From Ignavibacteria bacterium (lineage in GTDB: Bacteria; Bacteroidota; Ignavibacteria; Kapaibacteriales; Kapaibacteriaceae), in contig CANMBE010000004.1 in NCBI GenBank assembly GCA_947495975.1, positions 78,380 to 142,379 on the forward strand: DNA of 64,000 bases, given 5' to 3'. The position numbers and the translations under genes are program-made. Position 1 is the first letter of the stretch. Every line of letters begins with the position of its first letter. This document shows, in pieces, positions 1,616 through 54,114 of this stretch. The notes under the pieces were generated by a model. It did no database searches. It had not been told where the DNA came from and saw only the letters and a program-made list of their open reading frames with translations.

Positions 1616-4600
1616 TTAGCGAACGATCGTTAGAGTCTTAGAAAGTACCGTCTCTCCTACTGTGAGCTTGTACATGTAAGAACCAGACGCAACGTCTGTC
1701 CCTGCACTACTGCGGCCATCCCACTCAACAGCATAATTGCCGTTTGAGCCGGCCACATCATTGTTGTACATGGTCTGAACAAGGTTGCCCATCATATCGA
1801 ACAGCTCAAGTCTCACTTTGGAGCTGAAAGGAACGAGGAAGCTGAACGTTGTCTTGCCATTTGTTGGGTTTGGATAGTTGTCTTCGAGTGCAACAGCCGC
1901 TGATGCACCGAATTCTACATTCACAACATTTGAGAAGGATTGCGCACCGCTAATATCAACCTGACGTAGACGATACTCATACGTGGCAGACTTAGCTACG
2001 TTAACATCATAGAATTTGTAATTCGATGCTTGCGTTGAGTTACCCACTCCTGGTACATAACCTACAGATTGCCATGGGTTCTCTTCAGAGCCCGTGCGAT
2101 CTACACATGTAAGACTTATAACACCAGTTGTAAGGTTTGTAGACTCCTTCATACCACGACGCTCAACATGGAATCCAGCATTATTCTTCTCGGAAGCCGT
2201 CTCCCAGAACAGATCAACACCAGTGGCACGTGCTTTGGCATCAAAGTAGCTCAGCTCTACAGGAACTACACAATCAATGAAGATCGGCGGGCTCGAGAAC
2301 GAACGATTGCCGAAGTATGGACGAAGCATTGGGATCCATGAACCACGTGTGAACGTAGCATAGCCCAAGCTCATACCCATAGCATTAAGGTGTGCATATC
2401 CTGGATTACCGATTGTTGGAGTAAACGGTACCCAATCGCCGCTAAAGCGTGTAAGCTCATATGCAAAACGGTTGTCGTTAAGAAGTGCACCACTACGCGA
2501 GCGAACACGAAAGTTCTTATCGATCAACAGCGTGCGATTACCAATACCGAACACCGGAATGTCCGAATAAAGAGTGGTAACCATACCCATGCGAGACTCA
2601 GATGCACCAAGTTCATAACCTTCTGTACCCATTTGAGCAACGGTTGTCCAATATTCACCCGGTGGAATCACAACTGGCTTGTCAAGAAGATAGGTTACAT
2701 ACTTGCCGAACTGAGGCTCAGTAAACGCACCAGTTTGATCTTCACCACGACGGCGGAGAATAGTTGAGTTTGCGATACGCTCATCGCCCGGCACACCACC
2801 CTGGTCTTTGTAAAGCGAGAACGAGATGTTCAAAATATCCTGGTTGAGTTCTGCCCAGTATGCTTGATATCCACCAACAGTGTCTTGTGAATACAATGTA
2901 AATCTCATTGCTATCTGACCAGATGCATTACCAGCATCAGAACCGTACATGTCATCACCAGAGAGGCCTAATGGGAATGTTCCCCAGGTAGCACCCGTTG
3001 TGTATTGCGATGCTGGTCCTACAAGTGGCGACTGCCATCCTGAACCTTCAGCACCTGAAGAGGCACCACGATGGCTCAGACCCTTACCTGTTATACCAGA
3101 AAACTGAAGTTTCGGTACGTCATTCGTTGCATTAAGCGGATTGGTCTCGTACGAGAACGACGGTCCAAATGTCATTACAAACGTTGTGAAGGTTGAGTCA
3201 TTCAGTGTGTCTAGGTCATTTCCTGGGAAGAAGATCCTACCAGTGATCTTGTAACGGCCAGGAGTGGTTGTACGGAAGTTTGCATCCGGGAATGGAAGCA
3301 ATACTTCGCGATTGCCTGCGAGAGTAGGAATAGTGATCGTGCGGCAATAAATCTGCTGAAACTCGTTACCATCAGGCTTGATCTGAACGCGCACCGAGAA
3401 AGCCGGTGCAGCCATGTTCGTGTTGTTTGAAATCTTTACACGAATAGGAACACGTGTGGCCTGTGAGGCAGGAGCCATGGTGTATGGCCAGATCAATTGG
3501 ATGTTGCTGAATTCAACGTCCGTCACTTCATCTGGGAAGAGGATCTTTACGTTGTCGATAAAGAAGTTGTCCTCATCATCAGCTGGGTTAGGAGGCGTAG
3601 AGTTATTTACGCAGCGCGCACGAAGACGGAAACGGAAGTTACGAGCACCTTCGTTTACCCAATTGAGCACAGTGTCTGGGATTGGAATTGTGACTTTGTA
3701 GTATTCAGCGTCTTTACCATCGTCAAACAAGTCTTCGCGGAAACCACCGAGAGGTGGAGTCGAGGTGCTTTCCATTTGTTGATTGTAATTGACAAGATCA
3801 TAGCCGCGTGCATATCCACCACCACCCCAAACACGGAATGGCTGCAAATACTTGGTTCCACGGTTCTGAGCATCCATAACCCAATTCTGAATATTCGTAA
3901 TACCATTCAGTTGGTCTGTGCTTGGCTTTGCAAATTCAACCCAAATTTCGTCTGGATTGCGATATCCAGGCGTAAAGCCATTCACAGCAAGCATGTTCAC
4001 ACGATGCTCAGGTCCGATAAGACGGTTGTCTGAGAATCCGCGGCCGATGTTTGTAAGCTTGCCAGCACGTTGATAAGAAATCGAGAGAACAGCGCGCTTC
4101 TTGCGTGAAAGGTTGATTGGGAATGAACGGAGTTCATCACCACCGTATACGCCGATAGCAGGAATATCTCCATTGCTGAGGTTAACGCGGTTCATACGAA
4201 TGACCGGAGACTTCAGGCTGAAAATAGTAGAGTTTGCGGCAGGAAATTCGCCACGTGGAGGAGGTGGGTTGTTCGTAACCTCATCACCGTCAACAACGTC
4301 AGATTCGATGTTTACCCACTTGAGAACCGAAGGCATTGCTGCGCCACCTATGAGGTGATACTCAGTTACATCGTCATTGAAACTTGTTAAACGACGCATA
4401 ACGAATACACGGATGCTCGTTGTATCATCAAACGGCCATTGATCACCAATTGATTGGTTAATCGAATCCTTAGGCTCAGCGATAACTGTTGTAAGAAGGC
4501 GACCAATCTGATCATCAATAAACTCATTCGGTTCAAATGGCGGGAACACAATTTTGATGAATTCATACGGCAACACAAACGTGTTAACTGCCTGATATGC

Positions 4601-6325
4601 AAGGTTGGTACCATTAACATCGCAACGGTAGACCCCAGAGTTTAACGTATCTCTAAGAGCTCCATCAGTTACAATACGCGACGTGTTGTAAACAATCTTA
4701 CCGGATGCTTCATTAACGATGCGGAAACGAACCTTGAAGTTAATGCCCTGTTTGATGTAGTTAACACCTTGAGGACCCTGAATGTCATTTGTAAGGTTTT
4801 GCACGATAGCAACAGGTTGAATAGCTCCAAGGCGAATGTCGCCGGCGAGCAGTTCGTAGTTGTTAGCCGTTGCAGTAGGAACGATCACTGAGAACGAAAG
4901 ATTTGCGTTGTTATTCAGAGCACGTACACGGTACGAAACGTTGATAACACGAAGCACGTTCTTGTACTGCTTGAACTTTATCGCAAGGAAGTCCTTCGGC
5001 ACAGTGTTGTCGTCATTCCGCGAACTTGTTGCGCGAACACTACCTCCTGTATTCACGTTGTGCAGGTACTCAGTGTACTGAGTGTACTTTATCGTACTGT
5101 AATCCAATAGTGTAGCAACTGGCATCGTAGCGGGGAAGCCAGACCAGTTAAGTCTCCGTGCAGGACCGGAAACGCCTACAGTTGAGTTACAACGAACCCA
5201 TACAGTTGCAGGGTGTGGCTGAAGCGCAGCTCTCGGAGCAATTCCAAAGAAACGCTCGTATTGAACAACAACGGAGCTGTCATTGCGATTGAGCGTTACT
5301 TGAAGTGAGAATCGATAGTGCTCGCCAACACCTGGGCGGTTATTTGGTAGGAACGTTACGTTATGAGTAACGCCACCAACAACGGCAGTCTTGCCACCAA
5401 TAGGAGTAAGGTTTACGTAGTAAATAACGAGCTTGTCGTTTGACGGAGAGCGCTTGTAGTAGACCTTTGAGAAGTCATCCACAGCGCTGTTTTCCGTGTT
5501 GTACACGGAGACCTGAAGATCGTCCCATGCCGGAGCAATGACTTGAGGCATTGCACCACCGAATGTGCCGCTAAGAGCGTCAAGCGTAGAGTTAGCACCG
5601 GAGCGGATACCACCAGTTGCATTTGTGGGTGTACCGCCGCAAGCGATATTGTTAAAACCGAAGTTGTCTGGGGAAGCGTCAGTGAGTCCGTTACCTGAAC
5701 GACCTCTGGTATCGTCCGACATAGGATCATACGAAGAGAATACGCCCGGTGTAACTTCAAGTGACACGCGAGCGGTTGGGTAACCGAATGCGTCCGCTTC
5801 ATAAAAGTAGCGTCTATTTGAAAGCGCGATGAGGCCATTCGTAGAAACGTAGAACGAATCTTGACGCACGCCATTGAAGTAGAACGGAAAACCAATCGAA
5901 ACTGGACCGGCAAACGCGTTGTCCGTTGAGTCATTGAGATTGGCCGGATTCCGGAAGTAGGCATGCCCACCAAAAAGATTTTGTGCTGGATCTGTCCAGT
6001 ACGTTGTGGGAAGTTGGCGTGGACCTGAAACGATCCGGCGCCATGTACCTGGTTGAAACAACGTATCTACAAACTGGGTTGGGTCTGGACGCCAGAAATC
6101 TGGAGCTTCATCGTCAGAGTCGACGAAATAATACCCCGTAGAAATCGGCGGATTTGTGCGATTGTTGGCGCCATTCAAAACGAAAGGCAGTGGATACGAT
6201 GCCACCGGGGCACGGTTACCACTCTTACGCAACACATCCTCGCCATCTTTCCCGTCCCCTGCCATAGCAAGAGAAGAGCCAACCAATACAGTCATGAGAG
6301 CAAGAAGTAGGAGTCTGCGGCTCAT
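1616..6325 (-). CDS. Very large (1569 aa) secreted protein with a T9SS C-terminal sorting domain (Por_Secre_tail); function unknown
   Basis: N-terminal signal peptide 'MSRRLLLLALMTVLVGSSLAMA'. C-terminus '...EDNYPNPTNGKTTFSFLVPF...VRLELFDMMGNLV...YAVEWDGRSSAGTDVASGSYMYKLTVGETVLSKTLTIVR' is a classic T9SS CTD. Asn/Thr/Gly-rich beta-rich composition. Confidence 0.75.
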   Translation of the reverse strand: MSRRLLLLALMTVLVGSSLAMAGDGKDGEDVLRKSGNRAPVASYPLPFVLNGANNRTNPPISTGYYFVDSDDEAPDFWRPDPTQFVDTLFQPGTWRRIVSGPRQLPTTYWTDPAQNLFGGHAYFRNPANLNDSTDNAFAGPVSIGFPFYFNGVRQDSFYVSTNGLIALSNRRYFYEADAFGYPTARVSLEVTPGVFSSYDPMSDDTRGRSGNGLTDASPDNFGFNNIACGGTPTNATGGIRSGANSTLDALSGTFGGAMPQVIAPAWDDLQVSVYNTENSAVDDFSKVYYKRSPSNDKLVIYYVNLTPIGGKTAVVGGVTHNVTFLPNNRPGVGEHYRFSLQVTLNRNDSSVVVQYERFFGIAPRAALQPHPATVWVRCNSTVGVSGPARRLNWSGFPATMPVATLLDYSTIKYTQYTEYLHNVNTGGSVRATSSRNDDNTVPKDFLAIKFKQYKNVLRVINVSYRVRALNNNANLSFSVIVPTATANNYELLAGDIRLGAIQPVAIVQNLTNDIQGPQGVNYIKQGINFKVRFRIVNEASGKIVYNTSRIVTDGALRDTLNSGVYRCDVNGTNLAYQAVNTFVLPYEFIKIVFPPFEPNEFIDDQIGRLLTTVIAEPKDSINQSIGDQWPFDDTTSIRVFVMRRLTSFNDDVTEYHLIGGAAMPSVLKWVNIESDVVDGDEVTNNPPPPRGEFPAANSTIFSLKSPVIRMNRVNLSNGDIPAIGVYGGDELRSFPINLSRKKRAVLSISYQRAGKLTNIGRGFSDNRLIGPEHRVNMLAVNGFTPGYRNPDEIWVEFAKPSTDQLNGITNIQNWVMDAQNRGTKYLQPFRVWGGGGYARGYDLVNYNQQMESTSTPPLGGFREDLFDDGKDAEYYKVTIPIPDTVLNWVNEGARNFRFRLRARCVNNSTPPNPADDEDNFFIDNVKILFPDEVTDVEFSNIQLIWPYTMAPASQATRVPIRVKISNNTNMAAPAFSVRVQIKPDGNEFQQIYCRTITIPTLAGNREVLLPFPDANFRTTTPGRYKITGRIFFPGNDLDTLNDSTFTTFVMTFGPSFSYETNPLNATNDVPKLQFSGITGKGLSHRGASSGAEGSGWQSPLVGPASQYTTGATWGTFPLGLSGDDMYGSDAGNASGQIAMRFTLYSQDTVGGYQAYWAELNQDILNISFSLYKDQGGVPGDERIANSTILRRRGEDQTGAFTEPQFGKYVTYLLDKPVVIPPGEYWTTVAQMGTEGYELGASESRMGMVTTLYSDIPVFGIGNRTLLIDKNFRVRSRSGALLNDNRFAYELTRFSGDWVPFTPTIGNPGYAHLNAMGMSLGYATFTRGSWIPMLRPYFGNRSFSSPPIFIDCVVPVELSYFDAKARATGVDLFWETASEKNNAGFHVERRGMKESTNLTTGVISLTCVDRTGSEENPWQSVGYVPGVGNSTQASNYKFYDVNVAKSATYEYRLRQVDISGAQSFSNVVNVEFGASAAVALEDNYPNPTNGKTTFSFLVPFSSKVRLELFDMMGNLVQTMYNNDVAGSNGNYAVEWDGRSSAGTDVASGSYMYKLTVGETVLSKTLTIVR

Positions 6326-7282: not shown

Positions 7283-9661
7283 ATGCTGTATAAAACATCA
7301 ATTTCTCGTAGTACTCTGATTCTTGTCTGTTTTATCCTTCTGAATTGTCCTGTTGTGCTTTGCGCGAACCAAGAACAATCAGATAAAACTGGTACTGCCA
7401 TCCAGCCAACTGGAATAGTCTCGGGACAAGTAATTGATGCAACAACGCAACAGCCCATTGTGGGCGCAAGCGTTGTTGTTGTTGGTACAAAACGTGGGGC
7501 ATTGGCTAAAAAGGATGGTCGTTTTGTTATCTCAAACATACCGGCTGGGATCTTTTCAGTAAAAGCAACACTGGTTGGGTACGCGCCAGAAGTGAAGAGT
7601 GACATTGTCGTTAGCCCCGGGAAGCCAATCACCATTGAAATTCGGCTCTCGCCCAGAGTTATCCAGCTTGATGAAGCAGTGGTAATCTCTGACGCGTTCC
7701 GCACAGACGGGCAATCAATTTCATCTACGCAGTTGTTAACGAGTGAAGAGGTTCGCAGAGCACCCGGAGTTCAAGAAGATGTAGTAAGAGCAATCGCTCT
7801 TCTACCTGGTGTTGCAGTTACACAGGCTGGTAGGAATGATCTTGCGATTCGCGGAGGAGCCCCTTTCGAAAACCTGTTCTTAATCGATAACATCGAAGTA
7901 CCGAACATCAATCACTTTGGTTCACAGGGGTCTTCGGGCGGCCCACTTTCACTCGTGAACATTGCACTCGTTCGTGATATTTCACTTTCTACAGGGGGCT
8001 TTGGGCCTCGATTTGGCGACCGATTGTCATCTGTAACAAACCTGACCTTGCGAGAAGGAAACGATCAACGATTTGCCGGCGAAATTAATCTCAGCGCTAC
8101 AGGCGTTGGACTCGTAGCAGAGGGTCCGGTGGGAGAGCATGCAACGTATTTGGTTTCTGTTCGGCGCAGCTATCTTGATTTGATTTTTACGTTAGCGGGC
8201 TTTGGATTCATTCCCGAGTATTGGGATTTCTCTGGCAAGGTTACGTATGAAATCTCTCAACGAGATAAGCTCTCATTTCTTGCTATCGGCGCCATTGACA
8301 AGGTCCGTTTTAACAACACGCCAGAAAATCTTTATCAGAACAGTCGGACCACCGCTCCATCGCAGAACCAATACTTCGCCGGACTAACATGGAGGCACTT
8401 GCTAGACAACGGCTATGTAAATGTAACGCTCGGAAGATCATTCTCATACTACAATACGATTCAACAGGATTCGCTCGCTAACGACATTTTTCGAACTGTT
8501 ACGAACGAAGGTGAAAACTCCTTGCGTGCAGACTTCGTTACCTTCCCATCGTCATCATGGGAACTCAACATCGGCGCTATTGTCAAATATGCTAGCCTGC
8601 TTGACTACAGCGTGATCCTTCCAGGATACGTGAGACGAGACGCCTCAGGATCACCCGCTCCGTTAAACGTGGATACGTCTTTTACTGCCCTTCGTGGTGG
8701 CGCTTACATACAGGCGGAGTGGTCTGCAACTGACCTTCTCACAGTAACCCTAGGAGCCCGCGTTGACTATTATGCTTTCCTGGAAAGTAACAGGGCAGCA
8801 GTTTCTCCTCGCGCAACGCTGTCGTACCTCGTTGCCCAAGACATGACGTTGCGATTAAGTGTGGGGCGCTACTTTCAATCCCCTCAATACATTTGGCTTA
8901 TTGGCGATCCATCGAATCGCACAAATCTCCGACCCATAAAAGCAGATCAAGCCATCTTAGGTTGGGAATGGATTGCTACAACTGATCTAAAATTTCAAGT
9001 TGAAGCATATTATAAAACCTACGATGGCTACCCTACGAGAACATTTCGTCCACAAGCAGTTCTAGCGTCAGCTGGGTTTGAGGATATTTACAAGGACATC
9101 CCTTTTGGCCTTGAACCTCTAACCAACAATGGGACGGGCATTGCATTGGGGATTGAATTCTACTTGCAAAAGAAACTCAGCACCGCAATTCCTATCTACG
9201 GGATTGCATCCGTCTCAATCAACCGAACCCAATTCATTGCCACAGACGGCCAAAAGCGTCCAGGCTCCTTTGATACCCCCATCATCAGCACCCTCGCACT
9301 TGGATGGAGACCTGATGCAGAATGGGAAGTGAGCAGCAAACTTCGGTTGTCTCAAGGTCTTCCGTCAACACCATACATAACCACTGCTGCGCGTGCGCTG
9401 GAAACAGGTTTTCCCGTGGGTTCAATAGACTTTGATTTTTTCAATCAAGGGGCTCGGCTGCCATTCTTTTATGCGCTTGATGCGCGGGTAGACAAACGAT
9501 GGTTCTTTCCTGGTTGGCAACTCATTGTTTACGTTGATGTTCAGAATATTACTGGACGAAAGAACGTGAGCGGCAATCGATGGAACCAACAGACCCAGTC
9601 AATGGAAGCCCAGGAAAGCATTGGCGTTCTACCGTCAATCGGCATCAATATTCAATTCTAA
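7283..9661 (+). CDS. TonB-dependent outer-membrane receptor (CarboxypepD_reg-like N-domain + plug + beta-barrel)
   Basis: Signal peptide, then a CarboxypepD_reg-like segment '[55 protein letters not shown]'. Plug motifs '[21 protein letters not shown]...[18 protein letters not shown]'. C-terminal aromatic residue 'NIQF'. Confidence 0.8.
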
Positions 9662-12600
9662 GATGTCAGATTTGGAGACAACCATCGCTCTGCTACTTCA
9701 ATGCTCCAACCTTTGCGCTTCGCGTAATCCACAACCTGGTCTGTACTGATTTTGTTGACCGCGAAGTACGACGATTGATGATGTGCAAAATACCATCCGC
9801 TTACACTTGAAGCAGGGTACATAGCATAGTTTTCTGTCAGTGATACACCAGTATGTACTTCCGCCTGAAGCATTGCAAACAGTGTAGGCTTCTCTGTGTG
9901 GTCCGGGCACGCGGGATACCCAGGAGCTGGGCGAATACCCTGATACGACTCATGCACAAGGTCGCTCGTTGTAAGCTCTTCGTTGGCTGCATAGCCCCAC
10001 AAATCCTTACGGACCTTTTGATGCAACCACTCTGCACATGCCTCAGCAAGTCTGTCTGCAATGGACTTTACCATAATCGAGGAATAGTCATCATTATCAG
10101 CCTCGTAAGCTCTACACAATTCGTCAACACCGATTCCTGCATTTACTACAAAGGCACCGATATGATCAGATACGCCATCAGGCAGCATGTCCTTCGTAGC
10201 AATGAAATCAGAAAGACATAGTTGAGGTAAACTGGGAGCCTTCACAGATTGCTGTCGAAGAAAATGCAGACGAGCGTGGTCCTTTACAACAACATCATCT
10301 CCATCGCGCATAGCTTCAAAGAGTCCGCAAACCGCACGTGCTGCAATGCTCTTTTTCTCTATGATCTCATCAAGAAGTGCATTGGCGTCTACAAACAACT
10401 TTGTGGCTTCAACCCCAAATGCAGCGTCTGAGAGTATTGCTGGGTAGCGTCCGCGCAATTCCCACGATAAAAAGAACGGCGTCCAGTCAATGAATTCTCG
10501 CAATTCCGTCAAGGCGATGTTTTCAAAGCTTGTTAATCCAAGCTTGTTTGGCGTGGTAGGAATGTGAAGTGGATCTAGAACCAGGCAGTTTTTGCGTGCG
10601 GCTTCGAGTGTGACGTAGTTCTTTGCGTCGCCACGCTTCGCATAATCAATGCGTACATGCTCATATTCGGCATGAATCTTTTCGATGAATGCCGGACGTT
10701 GGTCATCACTCAAAAATGAACCCACAACGGGCACGGCGCGCGAGGCATCCAACACATGTACCACGGGGAATGTTGCCGCAGGTGCGATCTTCACAGCTGT
10801 ATGTGTTCGTGATGTAGTAGCGCCTCCTATGAGGAGCGGCTTGTGAATTCCTCTTCGAACCATTTCTTTTGCAACATGAACCATCTCATCAAGCGACGGC
10901 GTTATTAGCCCAGACAGTCCAATAACATCAACATCCTCGCTCACTGCAGCGTCAAGAATTTTGTCTGCCGAGACCATTACTCCAAGGTCTACGATGCGAT
11001 AGTTATTGCAGGCCAGCACAACGCCAACAATGTTCTTACCAATGTCGTGCACGTCTCCCTTTACTGTAGCCATTAGCACAGTACCGGCATTCCTCTGTTC
11101 AACTCCCGTACGCCTCTTTTCTTCTTCCATGTACGGCGTAAGTATTGCAACGGCCTTCTTCATCACGCGGGCGCTCTTCACAACTTGAGGTAAGAACATT
11201 TTACCGGCACCAAAAAGATCGCCCACAACATTCATCCCCGCCATGAGCGGACCCTCGATGATGGAAAGGGGCGACGGAAGGGTTTGTCTTGCCTCTTCGA
11301 CGTCTACATCAATAAACTCGGTGATGCCTTTCACAAGTGCATGGCGAAGTCTAGACGTTACGTCGCCAGAGCGCCACTCTTCGTCTTTTACGGCTTCTTT
11401 GTCAGCACCTTTTACGGTTTCTGCGAAGGTCAAAAGACGCTCTGTTGCATCAGATCTACGATTCAATAGCACATCTTCTACGTGTTCGAGAAGATCCTTC
11501 GGGATTTCATCGTACACATCAATCTGACCGGCATTCACAATTCCCATATCCATGCCTGCTTGAATTGCATGGTATAAGAATGCTGTATGCATTGCACGGC
11601 GCACAGGCTCGTTTCCACGGAATGAGAACGAGATGTTACTCACTCCACCACTGATTTTTACATGTGGAAGGTGCCCCTTTATCCAATGTGTTGCGCGGAT
11701 GTAGTCCACTGCGTAATTGTTGTGCTCATCAATTCCAGTACCAACTGTTAGAATGTTGGGGTCGAAAATGATGTCTTGGGGCGGAAATCCCACAACAGTA
11801 GTAAGAATGCGATATGCTCGTTCGCAGATCTCAATTCGTCGCTCAAAATTATCGGCCTGACCCTCTTCATCAAAGGCCATGATGATGACTGCCGCGCCAT
11901 AGTCTCTACAAAGCTGCGCCTTGCGAATAAACTCTTCTTCTCCGTCTTTTAGAGATATGGAATTAACGATTCCCTTTCCCTGTATGCATTGTAGACCAGA
12001 TTCTAGAACCGACCATTTGGAAGAATCGATCATCACTGGCACACGAGAGATGTCGGGCTCTGCCGCAATGAGATTCAGAAAGGTGCGCATTGCCTTCTCA
12101 GAATCAAGAAGGCCTTCGTCCATATTCACGTCAATAATCTGCGCACCATTTTCAACTTGTTGCCTCGCAACATCAAGCGCTTTTTCATAATCATCGTCGA
12201 GGATAAGTTTCGCGAATGCTTTTGAACCAGTTACGTTGGTTCGTTCACCAACGTTTACAAAATTGGCTTCTGGCCGAAGCTCGAGAGCTTCGAGTCCACT
12301 TAGTCGCATGTAGAGGGGGCGCTGCGGTATCTGGCGCGGAGGCATGCCAGCAACTGCATCTGACATCGCACGGATGTGCTCTGGGGTAGTGCCGCAGCAA
12401 CCGCCAATAATGTTCAAGAAGCCAGATGTGGCATAGTCCCGAGCTTGCTCGGCCATGTAATCTGGCGTTTCATCATAGCCACCCATTGCATTGGGTAGGC
12501 CCGCATTGGGGTACAATGAAACAAATGCTGTAGCAACATTCGAGATCTCTTCGATGTATGGTCTCATCATCGACGAACCCAAGGCGCAGTTCAAGCCAAT

Positions 12601-13317
12601 GGATAGAAGATTCCGAGTATGTTGAACTGACGTCCAGAATGCTTCAGGCGTCTGACCCGAAAGAGTACGTCCGGACATATCCGTGATCGTACCACTGATC
12701 ATCACAGGAAGAGAAACCCCCTGCTCCACACATACGTCTGCATATGCCTTCAGCGCCGCCTTCACGTTCAACGTGTCGGTAACAGTTTCAAAGAGGAGCA
12801 GATCAACTCCTCCTTCTACAAGCCCAAGAATCTGTTCCTTGAATGAGTCGCGCATTTCATCAAATGAAACTGCACGAAAGCCTGGATCATTTACATCCGG
12901 AGACATCGACAACATCTTTGTTGTTGGTCCAATGGACCCAGCAACAAAGCGCGGTCTGTTGGGTGTGCGCCGTGTTACCTCATCAGCGGCTGATCGCGCA
13001 ATGCGTGCCCCTTCCCTACTGAGCTCGCGGGCAACGAATCCAAGATCGTATTCGGCTTGGCCTAACGTAGTGCCCGTAAAGGTGTTGGTCTCTATGATGT
13101 CTGCGCCTGCTTCCAGGTAGGCCACGTGAATAGAGCGAATGGCTTCTGGCTGTGTGAGAACCAGAAGATCATTGTTCCCCTTTAAGGATACGTTGTGATC
13201 TGAGAATCGAGATCCTCGATAATCTTCTTCGGTTAGGCGAAGACGCTGGATCATCGTGCCCATCGCACCATCCAGCATGAGAATCTTGTGCGCAAGCAGA
13301 GTACGAATGTCTGTCAT
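9658..13317 (-). CDS. metH: Cobalamin-dependent methionine synthase (5-methyltetrahydrofolate-homocysteine methyltransferase), full 4-module form
   Basis: 1219 aa. Hcy-binding N-terminus '[24 protein letters not shown]', pterin-binding, B12-binding '[11 protein letters not shown]' and AdoMet-reactivation domains are recognisable in order. Confidence 0.92.
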
Positions 13318-26010: not shown

Positions 26011-28452
26011 CTAGCGGACGATGATTTTCTCGAATCGAGTGGTGCCGTTCTGTTCCAGAACAAGAACATACAGACCGCCAGAGATAACGCTTCCGTTTGA
26101 GTCGCGCCTGTTCCACACAATTTCAGTGTTTCCAGATAGGATAGCAATTGTTTTACCTGTAACAGTCACAATGCGTACACGCATTTCGCCAGCAACTGGG
26201 TTTACAATGCGTAGTTCGTCCGTCATTGGATTCGGTGCGATGCGAACTCCAGCTACTGGACTCTTGTCTTCTTCAATGCCTGAGATCAAGCGACGCGTGA
26301 GAACAAACATTGCATCTCCGGCATCAGTTTCAACCGTAACTAATGCATCTTCGCCACTTTCGGCGGTGGTTTCAAAACAGACATCTATTGATGCAGCATT
26401 GAGAATCTGAAATGGCATTGGAGTAGTTGCCTCATACCTCCACGTTGTTGCTCCTGGGCCTGTGAGGCGGACACGTCGGACTTCAGTTGCATTACATGGC
26501 AATGGAATAGACTTGTTGCATCTACGATCACCTGCAACACCTTCAGCGAACACCACGGTGTCGCGTTCGAATGACAATCCTGTCATTGCATTTCCGCTAA
26601 CGGTAAAGATGCGATTTCCGCTTGCGGCAAAGAACGTAACAGTGGCTGCCAGAACCCCAGACTTTTTGGGCATGATCTTTAGCCGCACATCTCTTCGCTC
26701 ATTCGGGGCAAGTACGAGAGGAGCCGTTAAACCTTCAACAGCGATGTTGGCTATTGGTTCTGCTGATATTGACGTGATGGTAATGGAGGAGCCCCCTTCA
26801 TTCACAAGCATACCAGAGATTGTAGTGTCCACTGTAGAACAAGAAGGCACTCCATCAAGAAGTAGACCAACTGACGTTAGTTCTAGCTGTCCCGGGCCTG
26901 CACGTCCGATAACTTTTACAATTGCTTCACGTGTGGTGATTGTATCGCACTGGTTCATGACACGGCAACTGTAAATGCCAGAATCAGCACGAATGACAGG
27001 CGACTGGCGATAAATCCTCTGAGTTGCACCAGGCAAAACAATGCCGTTTTTGAGCCATTGATATGTGAGCAATTCACCTGCAGCATCCAATGTGAGAGTG
27101 AGTGAATCACCAGATTTAAGATTCTTATCCACCGGTTCCAATCGAATCGATGGACGCTCTACAACATTGAGTCGGACAACAATACTAGTTGCTTCTGGCG
27201 TACACAAACCTTGAACGCGGCAGCTATAGTCGCCTTCATCAAAGAGGGTCACTACGGGGAATGAAATGCCTCTCGCTGTCATAGCCGGAATGGGTTCTCC
27301 GTTCTTGAGCCACTGAAACACGATGTCATTCCCGGTAGCATCTATGCTGAAGGATGCACTTTCTGATTCACAAACACTTTGTGGACTCGGTTGCATTGTT
27401 ATTTGAGGTTTTGTGCCAACAATAACGACTGCTGCTTCAGACGTGATATTTCCGCCACAACCAAATACGACACAGTCATACGTACCCGCTTCTGCTTGGC
27501 CTACTGTGTTAATGACGAGCAGTGGATTTACTCCGCCTGCAATATCAATCCCATCCCTGCGCCAACGGTATTGCAGATTCGTACCTGTTGCCGAGACTTG
27601 CATATTTAAAGGCTTGCCTTCACATACAAGTGTATTGATCGGCTGAAGTGAGATCACTGGCGCACTAGAAACGGAAACAATGTTTCCTCGTGCAATCTCA
27701 GCGCCTGTGACTATGTCTACCATTCGCACTGTATAGCCCCCTGCCATTTGTGTAGCCGGGATGTTATAGGTGAGGGTTAATGTAGAGGCATCAACACTTG
27801 TTGCAATTACATCGGTGTTTACAAAATTGTCTTTTGACCACTCAAGGCGTACGGTAGTCAGACCTGTTTGTGTCCACGTGAATGTAACCGGTGTGCCTCG
27901 GCACAAGGCTGTACCCGGCGCTGGGCCAGTAAACGTTGCGCCAGAAACAGTGATATTAATGTTACCAGTAACATTCCAATCATCGAGGTTGGATTCTAGC
28001 AAGTCTAGGTTAACAGCATTGCCCGCTCCGTTAAACGCATAGATGCCATGCGCAGCAGGAGCAGCCCATGAAAAATCAAACCGTGCCGCGCCCCCCACCA
28101 TTGCCATTGGAGCTGTATGCGTTAGCTCTCCACCAATGACTTGCGATCCAATACCTGCATTTACGGTGCCTGCGGCAACTGCACCTTGGCGGAAACTGAG
28201 ATTAAAGCCAGCGCTTTGATTAGCCTGATTAGCATGCCCCACAACAAATGTATAGTTGTTGGTCTGGCCAGCTCTAACACTTCGCGGACCTTCGAGAGAA
28301 AGGGCTGTAGCGACAGTTTGGCCACCGTGACAGTTTCCGCAGCCGGCAGCAAAAACGCCAGTCTTGCCGCCAGTATTCGCAGTTGCCACAAAAGGCACGA
28401 TGAAAGCCAATACGGTCAAAAACAGGGAAAAACGGAAAAAATTATTGTTCAT
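26011..28452 (-). CDS. T9SS-sorted surface protein: N-terminal class-I cytochrome-c-like (CxxCH) domain + four Ig-like repeats + Por_Secre_tail
   Basis: Start at the internal M 'MNNNFFRFSLFLTVLAFIVPFVATA' (signal peptide). 'GVFAAGCGNCHGG...GP' haem-binding pattern. Four ~85-aa repeats with 'Y.C.V...C' Ig motifs (e.g. 'TYDCVVFGCGG', 'DYSCRVQGLC', 'IYSCRVMNQC'). C-terminal '...GGLYVLVLEQNGTTRFEKIIVR'. Confidence 0.75.
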   Translation of the reverse strand: MNNNFFRFSLFLTVLAFIVPFVATANTGGKTGVFAAGCGNCHGGQTVATALSLEGPRSVRAGQTNNYTFVVGHANQANQSAGFNLSFRQGAVAAGTVNAGIGSQVIGGELTHTAPMAMVGGAARFDFSWAAPAAHGIYAFNGAGNAVNLDLLESNLDDWNVTGNINITVSGATFTGPAPGTALCRGTPVTFTWTQTGLTTVRLEWSKDNFVNTDVIATSVDASTLTLTYNIPATQMAGGYTVRMVDIVTGAEIARGNIVSVSSAPVISLQPINTLVCEGKPLNMQVSATGTNLQYRWRRDGIDIAGGVNPLLVINTVGQAEAGTYDCVVFGCGGNITSEAAVVIVGTKPQITMQPSPQSVCESESASFSIDATGNDIVFQWLKNGEPIPAMTARGISFPVVTLFDEGDYSCRVQGLCTPEATSIVVRLNVVERPSIRLEPVDKNLKSGDSLTLTLDAAGELLTYQWLKNGIVLPGATQRIYRQSPVIRADSGIYSCRVMNQCDTITTREAIVKVIGRAGPGQLELTSVGLLLDGVPSCSTVDTTISGMLVNEGGSSITITSISAEPIANIAVEGLTAPLVLAPNERRDVRLKIMPKKSGVLAATVTFFAASGNRIFTVSGNAMTGLSFERDTVVFAEGVAGDRRCNKSIPLPCNATEVRRVRLTGPGATTWRYEATTPMPFQILNAASIDVCFETTAESGEDALVTVETDAGDAMFVLTRRLISGIEEDKSPVAGVRIAPNPMTDELRIVNPVAGEMRVRIVTVTGKTIAILSGNTEIVWNRRDSNGSVISGGLYVLVLEQNGTTRFEKIIVR

Positions 28453-28488: not shown

Positions 28489-28520
28489 CATAAAATAAGA
28501 AGAGCCGGCGGTCTCCCGTC
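28489..28520 (-). terminator. Probable terminator downstream of the YceI-family gene
   Basis: Imperfect hairpin 'GAGCCGGCGG-TCTC-CCGTCGGCTC' followed on the minus strand by a T-rich tract. Confidence 0.4.
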
Positions 28521-28573
28521 GGCTCTTGAAACATTTAAGTTCATTATTCAACCATTTCAGACAGCAAAGCCAA

Positions 28574-29221
28574 TTATGAATTCGCAAGGAGTTTGGCTTC
28601 GATAGCAATAGTTTCGCCAACGCTCTTACCAATAATCCCCGCTTTTCCAGCAATCTGATGGTCAGCCAAGGCAACTACGAATTTTGTGTCGATCATAACC
28701 AGGTTACCGGTAGCCCTCTTTGCGGTTTCCGCTGAAGCTGGGATGTAGGTGATAACCACGTTTGCCAGTGACGGCTTCGCTACTCCGTGGCATGTAAAAA
28801 CGCCAATAGCCGTAGCGGTTACCACGCTCTTGCCATCCTTCGTTACAACTTTAACGTCTTTTAGCGACTTTACATCAAAGGCTACTGTTGGGTGCGCATC
28901 TGCACCAAGCCACATTTCGCTATACATGTGACTATCTCGCTGTGAATTAGCCGTCTTCATGGACGTTACTTGCACTTCAATGCGCCCTGTTGTTGCTTCC
29001 AAATTGCTTGGATCTAATGTAAAGGAGCCAGACACACCGTCTGCCGTGCCTGTTATCTTCTCCATTGGTGCCTCTGAAACAAACTCAACTCCACTTTTGC
29101 CAACCGCATTGTTCATTGAGTACTTCTTTGCCCCTGCCTGGGCTCCAGAAATACCAGTACCGGCTGTTAGAACTGCTGATATGACGACGAGAAGCGCAAG
29201 TGTTGCAATGATGTTTCGCAT
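28574..29221 (-). CDS. YceI-family periplasmic (polyisoprenoid-binding) protein
   Basis: Signal peptide, then 'SGVEFVSEAPMEKITGT...GSFTLD...RDSHMYSEMWLGADAHPTVAF', the characteristic YceI pattern. Confidence 0.75.
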   Translation of the reverse strand: MRNIIATLALLVVISAVLTAGTGISGAQAGAKKYSMNNAVGKSGVEFVSEAPMEKITGTADGVSGSFTLDPSNLEATTGRIEVQVTSMKTANSQRDSHMYSEMWLGADAHPTVAFDVKSLKDVKVVTKDGKSVVTATAIGVFTCHGVAKPSLANVVITYIPASAETAKRATGNLVMIDTKFVVALADHQIAGKAGIIGKSVGETIAIEAKLLANS

Positions 29222-42327: not shown

Positions 42328-43353
42328 TTACGGTTGCTGCCACGCAGGGTTTGTTAGGACACTCGAATCAGTAAGTGCCTTCATAAAGGCAACGAGCGAA
42401 GCCTTCTCTGGATCGGTTAACCCAAGCTTCTTTACACGAGGGTCTTTGTTGGGGAACGGAGTGCCCCCATCATTATAATGATCCACAACTTGTTCAAGCG
42501 TTGTAAGGAGCCCCTTCTCACTGTCTCCTGTTGCCATATACGGAGGACTAAGGGCCACATTTCGCAGCGTTGGTGTTTTGAATTTTCCTTCGTCTAGAGG
42601 ATCCTTTGTCACATTATACCTACCACGATCAAAATAGTGGTGGAACAACCCCACATTATGGAAGAGGTCGTCTGTGAGGTCAGGCCCACTATGACAAGAG
42701 CTGCACAGTGCCTTGCTGCTGAAGAACAACTGCATGCCTTTACGCTCTAGCGCCGATAAGGCATTGAGATGTCCTTGCAAGAAACGATCGTATCTACTGT
42801 TAGCACTTACAATTGTCCGCTCAAACGTGGCAACGGCTTGCATTACGCGTGGCATCGAAACTGAAGTGTCCCCGAAAGCAGCGAGCCATTTTGCGCGATA
42901 CACATCAGAGCGCAGCAACACAGCAACTGCGAACGTGTCAGCCTGCATCTCTGCCGAATTCAAGAATGCTCCCATCGCCTGCTCTTCAAGTGTAGAAGCT
43001 CTGCCATCCCAGAACATCATCTTTCGATACCCTACGTTCACAATCATTGGTGCGTTGCGCAGGCCTCTCGCTCCTTGCACACCCTGGCTTACTTGATTGG
43101 GCGCATCAGAAAATGATTGCGCAGCAACGTGGCAGGAAGCGCACGCAATTGTACCTTCATTTGAAAGTCGCTTGTCGTAAAAGAGATGACGCCCTAGATC
43201 AACCTTTTCACGCGTGATCACATTATTGGCTGGGTACACCATAGCCGGGAGATGTGCCGGCACCGACGGAAATTGTTCTTCCAACGGCTGCACGGGATCA
43301 CTGGCGCAGCCAGCGATCAAAACAAAAACGGCAACAATTGGTATGTATCTCAC
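42328..43353 (-). CDS. Di-haem cytochrome c peroxidase (CCP/MauG family), lipoprotein
   Basis: Two CxxCH sites ('CASCHVAAQ', 'CSSCHSGPD'), 'FHN' and 'MAT' ligand regions, and an 'LIAGC' lipobox. Confidence 0.85.
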   Translation of the reverse strand: MRYIPIVAVFVLIAGCASDPVQPLEEQFPSVPAHLPAMVYPANNVITREKVDLGRHLFYDKRLSNEGTIACASCHVAAQSFSDAPNQVSQGVQGARGLRNAPMIVNVGYRKMMFWDGRASTLEEQAMGAFLNSAEMQADTFAVAVLLRSDVYRAKWLAAFGDTSVSMPRVMQAVATFERTIVSANSRYDRFLQGHLNALSALERKGMQLFFSSKALCSSCHSGPDLTDDLFHNVGLFHHYFDRGRYNVTKDPLDEGKFKTPTLRNVALSPPYMATGDSEKGLLTTLEQVVDHYNDGGTPFPNKDPRVKKLGLTDPEKASLVAFMKALTDSSVLTNPAWQQP

Positions 43354-51219: not shown

Positions 51220-54114
51220 TTGTTGTTGTCGCCTATGCATCGCTCTGCCCAACTTTTCTTCGTTCTTGCCTCGTTGCTATGTTCAACGTGTTTGTGTGCG
51301 GCTTACGAGCCAAACGTTGTACTCATCACATTGCGTGCGAACAGCACAGCCCTGCGGCAATGGCAACAAGCCGATCGTAGCGGATCCCTTCCCTTTCTCA
51401 CAGAGATTCTTGGTCAGCACGCAACCGAGCCGTATGTGCTCAACTCAACGCTTATTGCAGTTGCGCACGCTCATGCACGCAAGAATATCACTTTCAAGCA
51501 AAGACCCGCAGACCGTGCGATAGCACGCATTGCTGTGGTCCGCTACAACGCTGATATTGACCCAGCGCTTTTGGCGCGCAAGCTTTCATCACTACCTGAT
51601 GTTGAAGTTGCAGAGCCCCTTGCTCAACATCACATCGTTGAAATACCAGATGATCCTGATGTTGACCGGCAATACTACCATGACCTCGTCAAATCATTCG
51701 AGGCATGGGACAAACTTCCTACCGATAGCACAATCGTAGTTGGGATTGTTGATACAGGTATCGACACTACACACGCCGACCTCCATGCGAATGTTTGGCA
51801 CAACTCTTTGGAAACGGGGCTTGATGGCAACAATAATGACAAACGATCGAATGGGATTGATGATGACGCTAATGGATTTGTGGATGATTGGTTTGGATGG
51901 GATTTTGTTGGTGCCAATGGAACGGCAACCGATAACAGCCCTCTACCTGGACATCTTCATGGAACACACGTTGGCGGCATTGTTGCCGCGGTTGTCAATA
52001 ACGCTACCGGCGGCGCAGGCGTCGGCAAGAATATTCGAGTGATGGCAGTAAAAGTTGGGCGTGATGATCCTAACTCCATTTCAGTTGGGCGCACATCCGA
52101 TGGCATCCTCTATGCTGCTTCAATGGGTGCATCAATCATCAATTGTTCGTTTGGTAGTGCATCACCGTCATTGGCAGAGACGGCAGTTATGGAAGAAGCC
52201 ACTGCTCTTGGTGCGCTTGTTGTTGCAGCTGCCGGGAATGATGGTCTCGATATGGCGTTCTTTCCTGCAGCGTATCCTCAGGTGCTGTCAGTTGCGGCAA
52301 CAGATGAAATAGATGAAATCGCATTTTTTTCCAATACACACAACACCGTAGATGTCTGCGCGCCCGGCGTGGCGATTTACTCAACAACTCCTAACAACAC
52401 ATATCAATATTTAGACGGCACCTCAATGGCATCGCCTGTTGCAGCAGCCGTTGCAGCGATGGTACGATTGAAGAATCCTACATATACCTCTGCCGAAACC
52501 AAGGCAACGGTTATGTCTACATGTGATAATATCGACTCAGCAAATGCCGTGTTTCTTGGTCGGTACGGCATAGGACGCGTCAATGCGCTCTCAGCCGTTT
52601 CGGCAACAGATCCCAAATGGGTTACTGTTTCGCGTGCAACGTTTGTTGACAGCGACGGAGATTCATTCTTTGAGCCGGGAGACAGACTACGTCTTACGCT
52701 TGAACTTCGAAACGAACTTGCTGCGCTAGGAAATGCATACATTAAAATTACAAACGCACCCGCAGCATTTGCCTCTTCACTTATCAACGACTCTATTGTT
52801 GTCGGTCAAATGGCGCGAGGTGAGATTCGTACACTCAGCGAGGAAATCAACATTGATCTGCCACTCGAATTGCCGTTCAACGGCGAGGTGCGGCTGTTGG
52901 TTCAGATTTTTGACAGCTCTCGATTTGTTAGCCGCGGGATTGTAGCTGCCATTGTAAACACAACATTTCGAACACTCGCCGTCAACGACGTTACAACCAC
53001 CGTGAACTCTGTGGGCAACGTTGGCTTCAATGATTATCCTTCAAACGTGCAAGGAGTTGGGCTCACATATAAGGGTGGACCAAATCTACTTTTTGAGGGG
53101 GCTCTGATGATTGGCGTTCAACCTCTCAATCTTCCGAATGTTGCTCGCAACGCTACATCCGATTCCAAGGACACGTTATTTCATGCAATACGCGTAACTG
53201 AGATTCGCACAGATAGCGTGCCATCAGGCGCGCGAGTTACAACATCCTTCTCCGATATCTTTGACCCCTTTTCTATTGGTATAGATGTAACAGAGAACAC
53301 ATATGCTCTCACTGCTGATTCAGTTCGAAACACAATTATTGTTTCTTTAGACATCTACAATCGTGTTGATACGACTATTCGCGATCTCTATGTCTCTCAA
53401 TTCTACGATTTTGATATTGGCCCCTCAGGTGCAAGCAATGGATGTGCTTGGATGCCAAAGGAAGGTCTAGGGCTCTTTCAGAATACTGTGCAACCAGAAC
53501 TTCCACTCGTTGGAATCGCAATGATTTCTCCCATTGCGTTAAATTTTTATGCGTTAGATAATGACGGCGATGTATTGTCACCAAGTATCTATGATAATTT
53601 TTTGCGCGCCGAAAAATGGCTTACAATGTCTAACGGAATTGGACGGAGAAATTCTCGCGTTACAGATGCTTCTGCTGTGATCGGAGCAGGACCTTTTTCA
53701 CTTGCTCCCGGTGAGCGCCAACAGGTTTGCTTTGTAGTAGCTGCAGGCGAATCATATGCTTTGCTGACGAAGGGAGTCAACTCTGCGCGTGGAGCAGCTC
53801 GGGATATGGGACTCAATGCCATTCTATATTCAGAACTCCCCTCCGAAGACAAGGTCATTTACCTAGAGGGCTCACCGCTTATAACATCGGGCACTCATAA
53901 TATCAAGTTCATAGTTGGCTCAAAAACTGCCGTCTACATCACCATGATAGATATTCTTGGCAGCACCATCGCAACAGTTCTTGATGACCGAGAGGTATTT
54001 GCGGGTACGCATACACGAACAATATCTATTCCGAACGTGGCCCAAGGGACCTACTTCCTGCGCATGACCACATATGCTTCGTCTACTCTGTTTGCTTTTG
54101 GCATGATTAACTAA
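51220..54114 (+). CDS. Subtilisin-family (S8) serine peptidase with a T9SS C-terminal sorting domain
   Basis: Catalytic triad segments 'VGIVDTGID', 'HGTHVGGIVAA' and 'GTSMASPVAAAVAAMV'. Signal peptide. C-terminal '...GTYFLRMTTYASSTLFAFGMIN'. Confidence 0.88.
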   Translation: MLLSPMHRSAQLFFVLASLLCSTCLCAAYEPNVVLITLRANSTALRQWQQADRSGSLPFLTEILGQHATEPYVLNSTLIAVAHAHARKNITFKQRPADRAIARIAVVRYNADIDPALLARKLSSLPDVEVAEPLAQHHIVEIPDDPDVDRQYYHDLVKSFEAWDKLPTDSTIVVGIVDTGIDTTHADLHANVWHNSLETGLDGNNNDKRSNGIDDDANGFVDDWFGWDFVGANGTATDNSPLPGHLHGTHVGGIVAAVVNNATGGAGVGKNIRVMAVKVGRDDPNSISVGRTSDGILYAASMGASIINCSFGSASPSLAETAVMEEATALGALVVAAAGNDGLDMAFFPAAYPQVLSVAATDEIDEIAFFSNTHNTVDVCAPGVAIYSTTPNNTYQYLDGTSMASPVAAAVAAMVRLKNPTYTSAETKATVMSTCDNIDSANAVFLGRYGIGRVNALSAVSATDPKWVTVSRATFVDSDGDSFFEPGDRLRLTLELRNELAALGNAYIKITNAPAAFASSLINDSIVVGQMARGEIRTLSEEINIDLPLELPFNGEVRLLVQIFDSSRFVSRGIVAAIVNTTFRTLAVNDVTTTVNSVGNVGFNDYPSNVQGVGLTYKGGPNLLFEGALMIGVQPLNLPNVARNATSDSKDTLFHAIRVTEIRTDSVPSGARVTTSFSDIFDPFSIGIDVTENTYALTADSVRNTIIVSLDIYNRVDTTIRDLYVSQFYDFDIGPSGASNGCAWMPKEGLGLFQNTVQPELPLVGIAMISPIALNFYALDNDGDVLSPSIYDNFLRAEKWLTMSNGIGRRNSRVTDASAVIGAGPFSLAPGERQQVCFVVAAGESYALLTKGVNSARGAARDMGLNAILYSELPSEDKVIYLEGSPLITSGTHNIKFIVGSKTAVYITMIDILGSTIATVLDDREVFAGTHTRTISIPNVAQGTYFLRMTTYASSTLFAFGMIN

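Follow-up and report, generated by a model that had tools for sequence, protein, structure and literature searches.

Invariant cysteines and histidine at variable spacing in the choice-of-anchor V head of a surface protein from a Candidatus Kapabacteria bacterium

Does a Cys-x-x-Cys-His motif placed just after a signal peptide make a surface protein a cytochrome? The question is raised by an 813-residue protein encoded on the minus strand of a 64,000-nucleotide stretch of an Ignavibacteria bacterium assembly (contig CANMBE010000004.1, positions 78,380 to 142,379; hereafter the window, with all coordinates counted from its first letter). An earlier note on this DNA had described the protein as a class-I cytochrome c-like domain fused to immunoglobulin-like (Ig) repeats and exported through a type IX secretion system (T9SS). 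We find instead that the N-terminal head, judged by its profile match and a structural model, is a member of the choice-of-anchor V family with a predicted beta-sandwich fold, and that the two cysteines and the histidine of its motif are invariant in the family, while the spacing between the cysteines is not. We give roughly an even chance to the explanation that a short disulfide-closed loop holds His42 beside His112, and that the site so formed, carried on a stalk at the cell surface, binds a ligand or a metal.

The gene and the parts of its product are placed as follows.

26011 to 28452, minus strand: whole coding sequence, 813 residues plus stop (ATG at 28452-28450, stop at 26013-26011)
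28378 to 28452, minus strand: Sec-type signal peptide, residues 1-25 (MNNNFFRFSLFLTVLAFIVPFVATA), read from the sequence; A-x-A site, with predicted cleavage after VATA
27928 to 28377, minus strand: choice-of-anchor V head domain, residues 26-175 (NF041895 match; AlphaFold2 model; predicted beta-sandwich)
28327 to 28341, minus strand: CGNCH, residues 38-42, within the family signature G-C-x(1-6)-C-H-G (sequence and alignment)
28117 to 28119, minus strand: codon of His112, the second conserved histidine, in the motif G-E-L-T-H-x-x-P (alignment)
27667 to 27924, minus strand: Ig-like module, residues 177-262 (Kre9_KNH-like over residues 177-247, below threshold, 22.3 versus 24.6)
26908 to 27666, minus strand: three Ig_3/Ig_2/I-set repeats, residues 263-515 (Pfam matches over residues 265-515; Ig_3 1.8e-29, three stretches)
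26242 to 26907, minus strand: beta-rich stalk segment, residues 516-737 (no Pfam match; assigned from collinearity)
26014 to 26241, minus strand: T9SS type A C-terminal sorting domain, residues 738-813 (TIGR04183, PF18962)

The head was assigned with the profile NF041895 (choice-of-anchor V), which scored 94.2 bits against a cut-off of 42 (E 7e-27) over residues 16-162, covering model positions 2-147 of 150. The related NF041894 (MXAN_6652 equivalog) gave 87.8 bits, under its 200-bit cut-off, and the protein has a T9SS C-terminus, not MYXO-CTERM. No cytochrome family of Pfam, Cytochrom_C and Cytochrome_CBB3 included, matched the whole protein at E<=1 or residues 1-177 at E<=10. When 50 family members were scanned individually, weak motif-level matches to PF00034 and PF13442 appeared in five and three of them, respectively. 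Searches of the PDB by sequence, both single-sequence and profile, returned just motif-level matches to cytochromes c555, c6 and c552, and chance matches to influenza M1.

An AlphaFold2 model of residues 22-177, built from 102 aligned sequences, predicts the head to be a beta-sandwich of about eleven strands (predicted local distance difference test, pLDDT, 85; predicted template modelling score, pTM, 0.82), rather than a cytochrome c fold. Its sole helix is a five-residue turn at CGNCH, and the Gly-Pro that follows this motif opens a predicted strand of the sandwich. The first 20 residues of the model, an N-terminal arm with pLDDT 40-59, are of low confidence. A Foldseek search of the PDB recovered generic Ig-like folds only (template modelling score <=0.5), with no cytochrome among the 50 matches listed. 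We found no source that labels any family member as a cytochrome, and our literature searches returned nothing on choice-of-anchor type V or on MXAN_6652, no described function for the family, and nothing relevant on T9SS together with cytochromes.

The location given for CGNCH in the earlier note, 28327-28341 on the minus strand, is exact, and the motif stands just past the signal peptide. An exhaustive phmmer search identified 1072 cluster representatives at E<=1e-3, where a word-indexed protein search with residues 1-177 had given one fragment only, and the head directly follows a signal peptide in 150 of 150 among the matches listed. Over 256 near-full-length homologous domains, which are the basis of all motif counts given here, C38, C41 and H42 are invariant (256/256). 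The motif is thus no chance occurrence, given this invariance and the 1072 homologous clusters. Elsewhere in the aligned family G82 and P132 are invariant, and W129, N145 and D157 nearly so. Residue 112 is His in 238 domains, Gln in 17 (7%) and Asn in one, and the domains with Gln retain C-Xn-C-H intact.

The spacing between the two cysteines is labile. The form with n=2 is found in 183 of the 256 domains (71%), n=4 in 40 (16%), n=1 in 29 (11%), n=5 in two, and n=3 and n=6 in one each. Close relatives are no exception: of domain pairs with 60-70% identity beyond the motif, 19% differ in n, as do 48% of pairs at 40-50% identity, which is near random. Both CXXCH and CX4CH occur among the collinear relatives of about 800-815 residues.

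We additionally scanned genomes with a degenerate DNA pattern for W-x-A-P...G-N-A-V-[ND], which returned 119 loci, 105 of them true family members. A single CXnCH is present in 121 of 122 family open reading frames (ORFs), the exception (L046) being only a partial match to the family hidden Markov model (HMM). Tandem arrays of two to four paralogues, often a long Ig-stalk form with a short form and with unlike Cys-Cys spacings, were found at loci L020, L024, L028, L035, L048, L076, L078, L079, L107, L120, L122, L131 and L134. Paralogues at the same locus carry n=2 and 4 (L020), 4 and 1 (L028), 1 and 4 (L079), 2, 4, 4 and 2 (L120), or 2 and 5 (L134). CGNCH is a CXXCH in a Sec-exported polypeptide, which is one of the features expected of a c-type cytochrome in the broad sense of covalent haem; across the homologues, however, the fixed spacing expected of a haem-binding motif was not found, and we know of no family of haem c sites with such labile Cys-Cys spacing. 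A full-text literature search for CXCH and haem recovered no haem site, just a list of regular expressions in a pipeline and unrelated work.

These results divide the earlier proposal. A conserved Cys...Cys-His after the signal peptide stands, but not as a fixed CXXCH: just 63-71% of homologues carry the strict form, the others having C-x1, x3, x4, x5 or x6-CH, in a family that is not described as haem-binding. This is largely the outcome that the earlier note had named as refuting its proposal. The methionines of the 'APMAM' stretch, which had been put forward as a haem ligand, are present in this protein but are not conserved. Most domains have K, R, Q or L at position 116, mostly K, while M stands there in 11 of the 256; at position 118, M occurs in 91 of them and L, A, F or I in the others. 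A class-I cytochrome c of the c551/c6 type, with His and Met as haem ligands and Ig repeats joined to it, was suggested by the local G-C-x-x-C-H...G-P pattern and has motif-level cytochrome c matches on its side (per-stretch E about 12). With no Pfam match at E<=10, an all-beta predicted fold, a Gly-Pro that starts a beta strand and M116 and M118 not conserved, we rejected it on profile, fold and ligand grounds, and regard it as extremely improbable.

The remainder of the protein agrees better with what had been proposed. The -1 alanine of the signal peptide is kept in 119 of 151 aligned homologues (alignment column), and the C-terminal tail scores over the curated cut-offs of both TIGR04183 (27.3 versus 23) and PF18962 (Por_Secre_tail, residues 740-812; 27.5 versus 27). 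A sorting domain above its HMM cut-off is thereby found together with an N-terminal Sec signal, as in T9SS type A cargo, and the suggested T9SS export is borne out. From these sequence features, the protein is a Sec-exported T9SS cargo carrying Ig repeats. Three of the four claimed I-set-like repeats were recovered as Ig_3/I-set; the fourth was not, the other modules being Ig-like or unassigned and beta-rich. The Kre9_KNH-like match of the first Ig-like module passes threshold in homologues, and residues 516-737 appear, from collinearity, to match in position the HYDIN/ASH/Cep192-type Ig-like modules of longer homologues. The same gene call, identical over 813 residues, is present on three ENA metagenome contigs, and the protein is collinear end to end with homologues of about 800-815 residues, with 47% identity to P0002 and 36-37% to P0003, P0004 and P0008.

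We identified a probable distant homology between the choice-of-anchor V family and the animal Reeler domain, as judged from sequence comparison. Pfam Reeler (PF02014) was the commonest recurrent weak match among the 50 members scanned singly (seven members, best E 3e-4, sub-threshold), and its matches outrank those to generic beta-sandwich families and the motif-level cytochrome matches. In ten long homologues a scan for Reeler turned up stalk domains but no Reeler match. For comparison we retrieved real Reeler proteins (ferric-chelate reductase 1 and fish 'defense proteins') and aligned six Reeler domains, which share the invariant core Y-x-x-G-x-V...C-x-x-M-x-P-x-H-G...F-x-G-F...G-x-F...C...S-A-V-S-H-T...W-x-x-P. 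An hhalign comparison of the family with these six domains gave 96 collinear columns at a statistically weak E of 0.0047 (probability 7%), and it puts the Reeler Cys opposite C38, H-G opposite H42-G43, the S-H-T histidine opposite H112 and W-x-x-P opposite W-x-A-P. The match to the human FRRS1 sequence alone was weak, and the family HMM scored 21.5 bits against Reeler protein P0303.

The Reeler proteins are secreted animal proteins without CXXCH, in which both histidines and the first cysteine are kept. If the homology is real, both histidines and the first cysteine would therefore predate the second cysteine. Both domains stand at the N-terminus next to the signal peptide and have a beta-sandwich, predicted in the case of the head, and in the statistically weak alignment they share the collinear motifs x-x-G-K-x-T...C...H-G, G-F, G-T-F-T, S/T-H and W-x-A-P; in Reeler (found in ferric-chelate reductase 1/SDR2, insect and fish 'defense proteins', reelin and F-spondin), by contrast, the cysteine pairs with a distant cysteine, and Met-x-Pro-x precedes the histidine in place of the second cysteine. 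The literature on Reeler with metal or haem was uninformative, and the conserved histidine site of Reeler has no known function (bioRxiv 10.1101/2023.09.01.555970).

From these observations we propose the following. The Candidatus Kapabacteria bacterium would export the protein by Sec, to be folded in the periplasm, and the type IX secretion system would recognise the C-terminal domain, leading to display on the outer membrane. About six Ig-like modules would form a stalk bearing the membrane-distal choice-of-anchor V head, a Reeler-like beta-sandwich. A disulfide between C38 and C41 would close a short loop, corresponding in bacteria to the long-range disulfide in which the matching cysteine of Reeler takes part. 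This loop would fix the invariant His42 beside the near-invariant His112, with E109, so that the stalk would end in a small site for binding a ligand or metal, and the protein would serve as a surface binding or receptor module, not as a class-I cytochrome c. We favour a disulfide staple because a variable Cys-Cys spacing is what such a staple would tolerate.

The most serious competitor, which we consider possible but less probable than the disulfide loop, is that the head is a new monohaem c-type cytochrome, with haem thioether-linked to C38 and C41, His42 as the proximal and His112 as the distal ligand. The haem would have the N-terminal arm on one side and the beta-sandwich on the other, roughly as it does in cytochrome f, and display by T9SS would serve electron exchange, or redox or gas sensing. 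Consistent with this, the 813-residue protein has a perfect CXXCH 12 residues past the signal-peptide cleavage site, n=2 is kept in most of its long-form homologues linked to YceI genes, and the second His is 93% conserved beside the invariant C, C and H. A missing cofactor might explain the low AlphaFold2 confidence of the N-terminal arm, and the weak local matches to cytochrome HMMs and to PDB cytochrome c555 span the motif.

Several further points weigh against the disulfide loop. An invariant Cys-His dyad with a second cysteine upstream is the hallmark of haem c, and CXXCH is the majority form, Sec-exported and carried on a probably flexible N-terminal arm. E. coli Ccm is reportedly able to mature CX3CH and CX4CH correctly. 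The host makes c-type cytochromes, a di-haem peroxidase being encoded in the window, and in one homologue, P0188, a PF13442 cytochrome c domain is joined on. Maturation systems of bacteria require little beyond CXXCH and load haem onto nearly any copy of it that is accessible (PMC3601427, PMC4158909). The Reeler homology is statistically weak at an hhalign probability of 7%, with no Pfam Reeler match in the 813-residue protein itself (E<=1 for the whole, E<=10 for residues 1-177) and no Reeler structure among the 50 Foldseek matches listed. The disulfide, the closeness of His42 to His112 and the binding function are, moreover, what we infer and not what we observed.

The spacing stands against haem. 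C-x-CH, in 11% of domains, is without known haem c precedent, the spacing flips among close relatives and inside tandem arrays of single genomes, and one maturation system would have to serve n=1, 2, 4 and 5. System II lyases are motif-specific, as in the CcsA isoenzymes of Wolinella. The probable Reeler relatives retain both histidines without CXXCH as secreted products of animals, whose secretory pathway we assume, to our knowledge, to have no haem lyase; and Gln takes the place of His112 in 7% of domains. No member is annotated as a cytochrome, and no Ccm/Ccs, cytochrome, multihaem or quinol-oxidising partner recurs in the homologue neighbourhoods surveyed. Extracellular electron transfer, which the earlier note had suggested, is accordingly without support, as no redox partner genes recur near the homologues. 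Because of the spacing variation including C-x-CH, the Reeler histidine pair, the His112Gln replacements and the lack of redox context, we prefer the disulfide loop to haem.

We rank behind both, as an improbable alternative, a reduced cysteine pair that would form, with His42 and His112, a Cys2His2-type Zn, Cu or Fe site or a small cluster, making the protein a metalloprotein or metal scavenger. It would account for four conserved potential ligands and for the His-to-Gln swap at position 112, a typical ligand substitution; zinc-knuckle-like sites commonly show variable Cys-Cys spacing, and the Reeler relatives keep Met and two His, by our own reading a copper-like ligand set. Exported, surface-exposed proteins of diderm bacteria, however, seldom carry thiolate sites, since neighbouring cysteines are oxidised by DsbA; the adjacent Cys41 and His42 are ill-placed for one mononuclear ion; and no metal-homeostasis genes recur near the homologues. 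In order of probability we therefore place the disulfide loop above covalent haem, and this, in turn, above the reduced-thiol metal site, a ranking that is approximate.

We compared the head and its stalk with known systems. With the NF041895 proteins, the NF041894 family included, the protein has in common the signatures G-C-Xn-C-H-G, G-E-L-T-H, F-x-F-x-W-x-A-P and G-N-A-V-N...D-x-W, and as in other choice-of-anchor V proteins, the N-terminal domain comes right after the signal peptide and a sorting signal stands at the C-terminus. Relative to the MXAN_6652 family of Myxococcota, the 813-residue protein adds an Ig-like stalk of about 560 residues, and a T9SS tail replaces MYXO-CTERM. With Ig-rich T9SS type A cargo of adhesin-like kind in the Fibrobacteres-Chlorobi-Bacteroidetes (FCB) group, it shares the signal peptide, tandem Ig-like modules and TIGR04183 domain, although its distal head is a choice-of-anchor V domain, not an enzyme or lectin. 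Class-I cytochromes c (PF00034, PF13442) resemble it only in the CXXCH pentapeptide and the preceding Gly, and differ in fold, HMM outcome, sixth ligand and the variable spacing of the homologues. Cytochrome f, a beta-sandwich protein in which about 20 residues separate CXXCH from the mature N-terminus, gives the haem alternative its one classical precedent; it has a fixed CXXCH spacing and its N-terminal amino group as a ligand, and showed no similarity to the head in sequence (PDB searches) or among the 50 Foldseek matches listed.

We investigated the genomic context of the gene, which includes three further features of interest.

28574 to 29221, minus strand: YceI-like gene (PF04264, 215 residues), directly upstream on the same strand
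28490 to 28527, minus strand: GC-rich hairpin with a U-rich run after it, in the 121-nt spacer that separates yceI from the surface-protein gene (dG -21.5 kcal/mol, z -3.2)
42331 to 43353, minus strand: di-haem cytochrome c peroxidase/MauG-type gene (PF03150), carrying two CXXCH; its upstream neighbour, ThyX, is no redox partner

No gene adjoins family members more often than the YceI-like gene (19 loci in the neighbour clustering), which is also the sole recurrent neighbour of likely relevance. YceI-linked loci are L004-L006, L020, L024, L027, L035, L039, L042, L064, L067, L071, L082, L083, L089, L090, L092, L103, L105, L118, L126 and L135. The next commonest neighbours, IscS-like, GDH and SecA genes, just reflect lineage synteny, and the YceI signal does so in part, with the order SecA, IscS-like, YceI, surface-protein gene, GDH. 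YceI also precedes a 269-residue short-form homologue with otherwise different flanks. The hairpin at 28490-28527 looks like a terminator from its sequence and is absent from the list of a consensus terminator scan; if it is one, yceI and the surface-protein gene may therefore not be co-transcribed. Remaining homologue neighbourhoods are mutually unrelated, and include a PKD/BNR surface-protein cluster, a rhomboid gene, a nuo operon and tandem paralogues.

Within the 64 kb of the window, CXXCH occurs only three times in ORFs of at least 100 residues, the other two occurrences lying inside the di-haem peroxidase. This peroxidase gene indicates that the organism makes c-type cytochromes, implying a maturation system; we saw no Ccm/Ccs gene in the window. 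The SecA encoded in the window falls in a cluster at 90% identity that bears the name Candidatus Kapabacteria. Further probable T9SS cargo is encoded there, and a 1569-residue ORF with a FlgD_ig-type C-terminus (1616-6325, minus strand) and a 964-residue S8 subtilase (51220-54114, plus strand) probably give secreted or surface-located products. MetH, the B12-dependent methionine synthase (9658-13317, minus strand), adjoins a TonB-dependent receptor with a CarboxypepD_reg N-terminal domain (7283-9661, plus strand).

The 105 family loci are distributed over Kapaibacteria, Ignavibacteria/Melioribacter, Chlorobiota, Bacteroidota, Myxococcota/Polyangia, Bdellovibrionales, Binatia, Thermodesulfobacteriota and metagenome-assembled genomes (MAGs) of unclassified Pseudomonadota. 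Six family contigs (L050, L049, L021, L032, L098 and L065) are labelled in MAGs as Bifidobacterium, Chloroflexota, Hyphomicrobiales, Klebsiella pneumoniae or Didemnitutus. They look mis-binned, since L050, L049 and L021 carry T9SS tails and the head of L065 is very like that of the window, and we rejected the members from Bifidobacterium, Chloroflexota and Hyphomicrobiales as examples from taxa lacking cytochrome c, as they are probably mis-binned and have T9SS tails. A 4.5-kb contig binned as a Poseidoniales archaeon (L058, 2288-3322, plus strand) encodes a choice-of-anchor V head whose motif reads C-T-C-H; after it come about three predicted transmembrane helices in place of a sorting signal. 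P0188 (236 residues) joins the head through a Pro/Thr-rich linker to a C-terminal Cytochrome_CBB3-type (PF13442) CXXCH domain, an arrangement seen in this single homologue.

The 813-residue protein is an added member of a named, functionally uncharacterised family, and is not a class-I cytochrome c. The signature of this family, Cys...Cys-His plus His, borne where surface stalks end, is unusually strict. Motif-based counts of cytochromes in metagenomes will include these proteins on weak grounds, given the labile spacing of the cysteines. A haem at the C-Xn-C-H plus His site would, if true, be of real interest. We consider it rather unlikely that the choice-of-anchor V family, with at least 1000 clusters across Kapabacteria, Ignavibacteria, Bacteroidota, Myxococcota, Binatia and others, is an unrecognised class of beta-sandwich, Reeler-like, surface-displayed monohaem cytochromes. 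In that event, C-X(1-6)-CH sites would be tolerated and the proteins anchored by T9SS, MYXO-CTERM or other anchors, FCB members would act together with their YceI-like neighbour, an isoprenoid- or quinone-binding protein, and the histidine pair of animal Reeler, as in ferric-chelate reductase 1, might be a haem or redox-metal site. Together, the probable Reeler link and the recurrent YceI neighbour lead to a testable hypothesis on the His-His site in both kingdoms.

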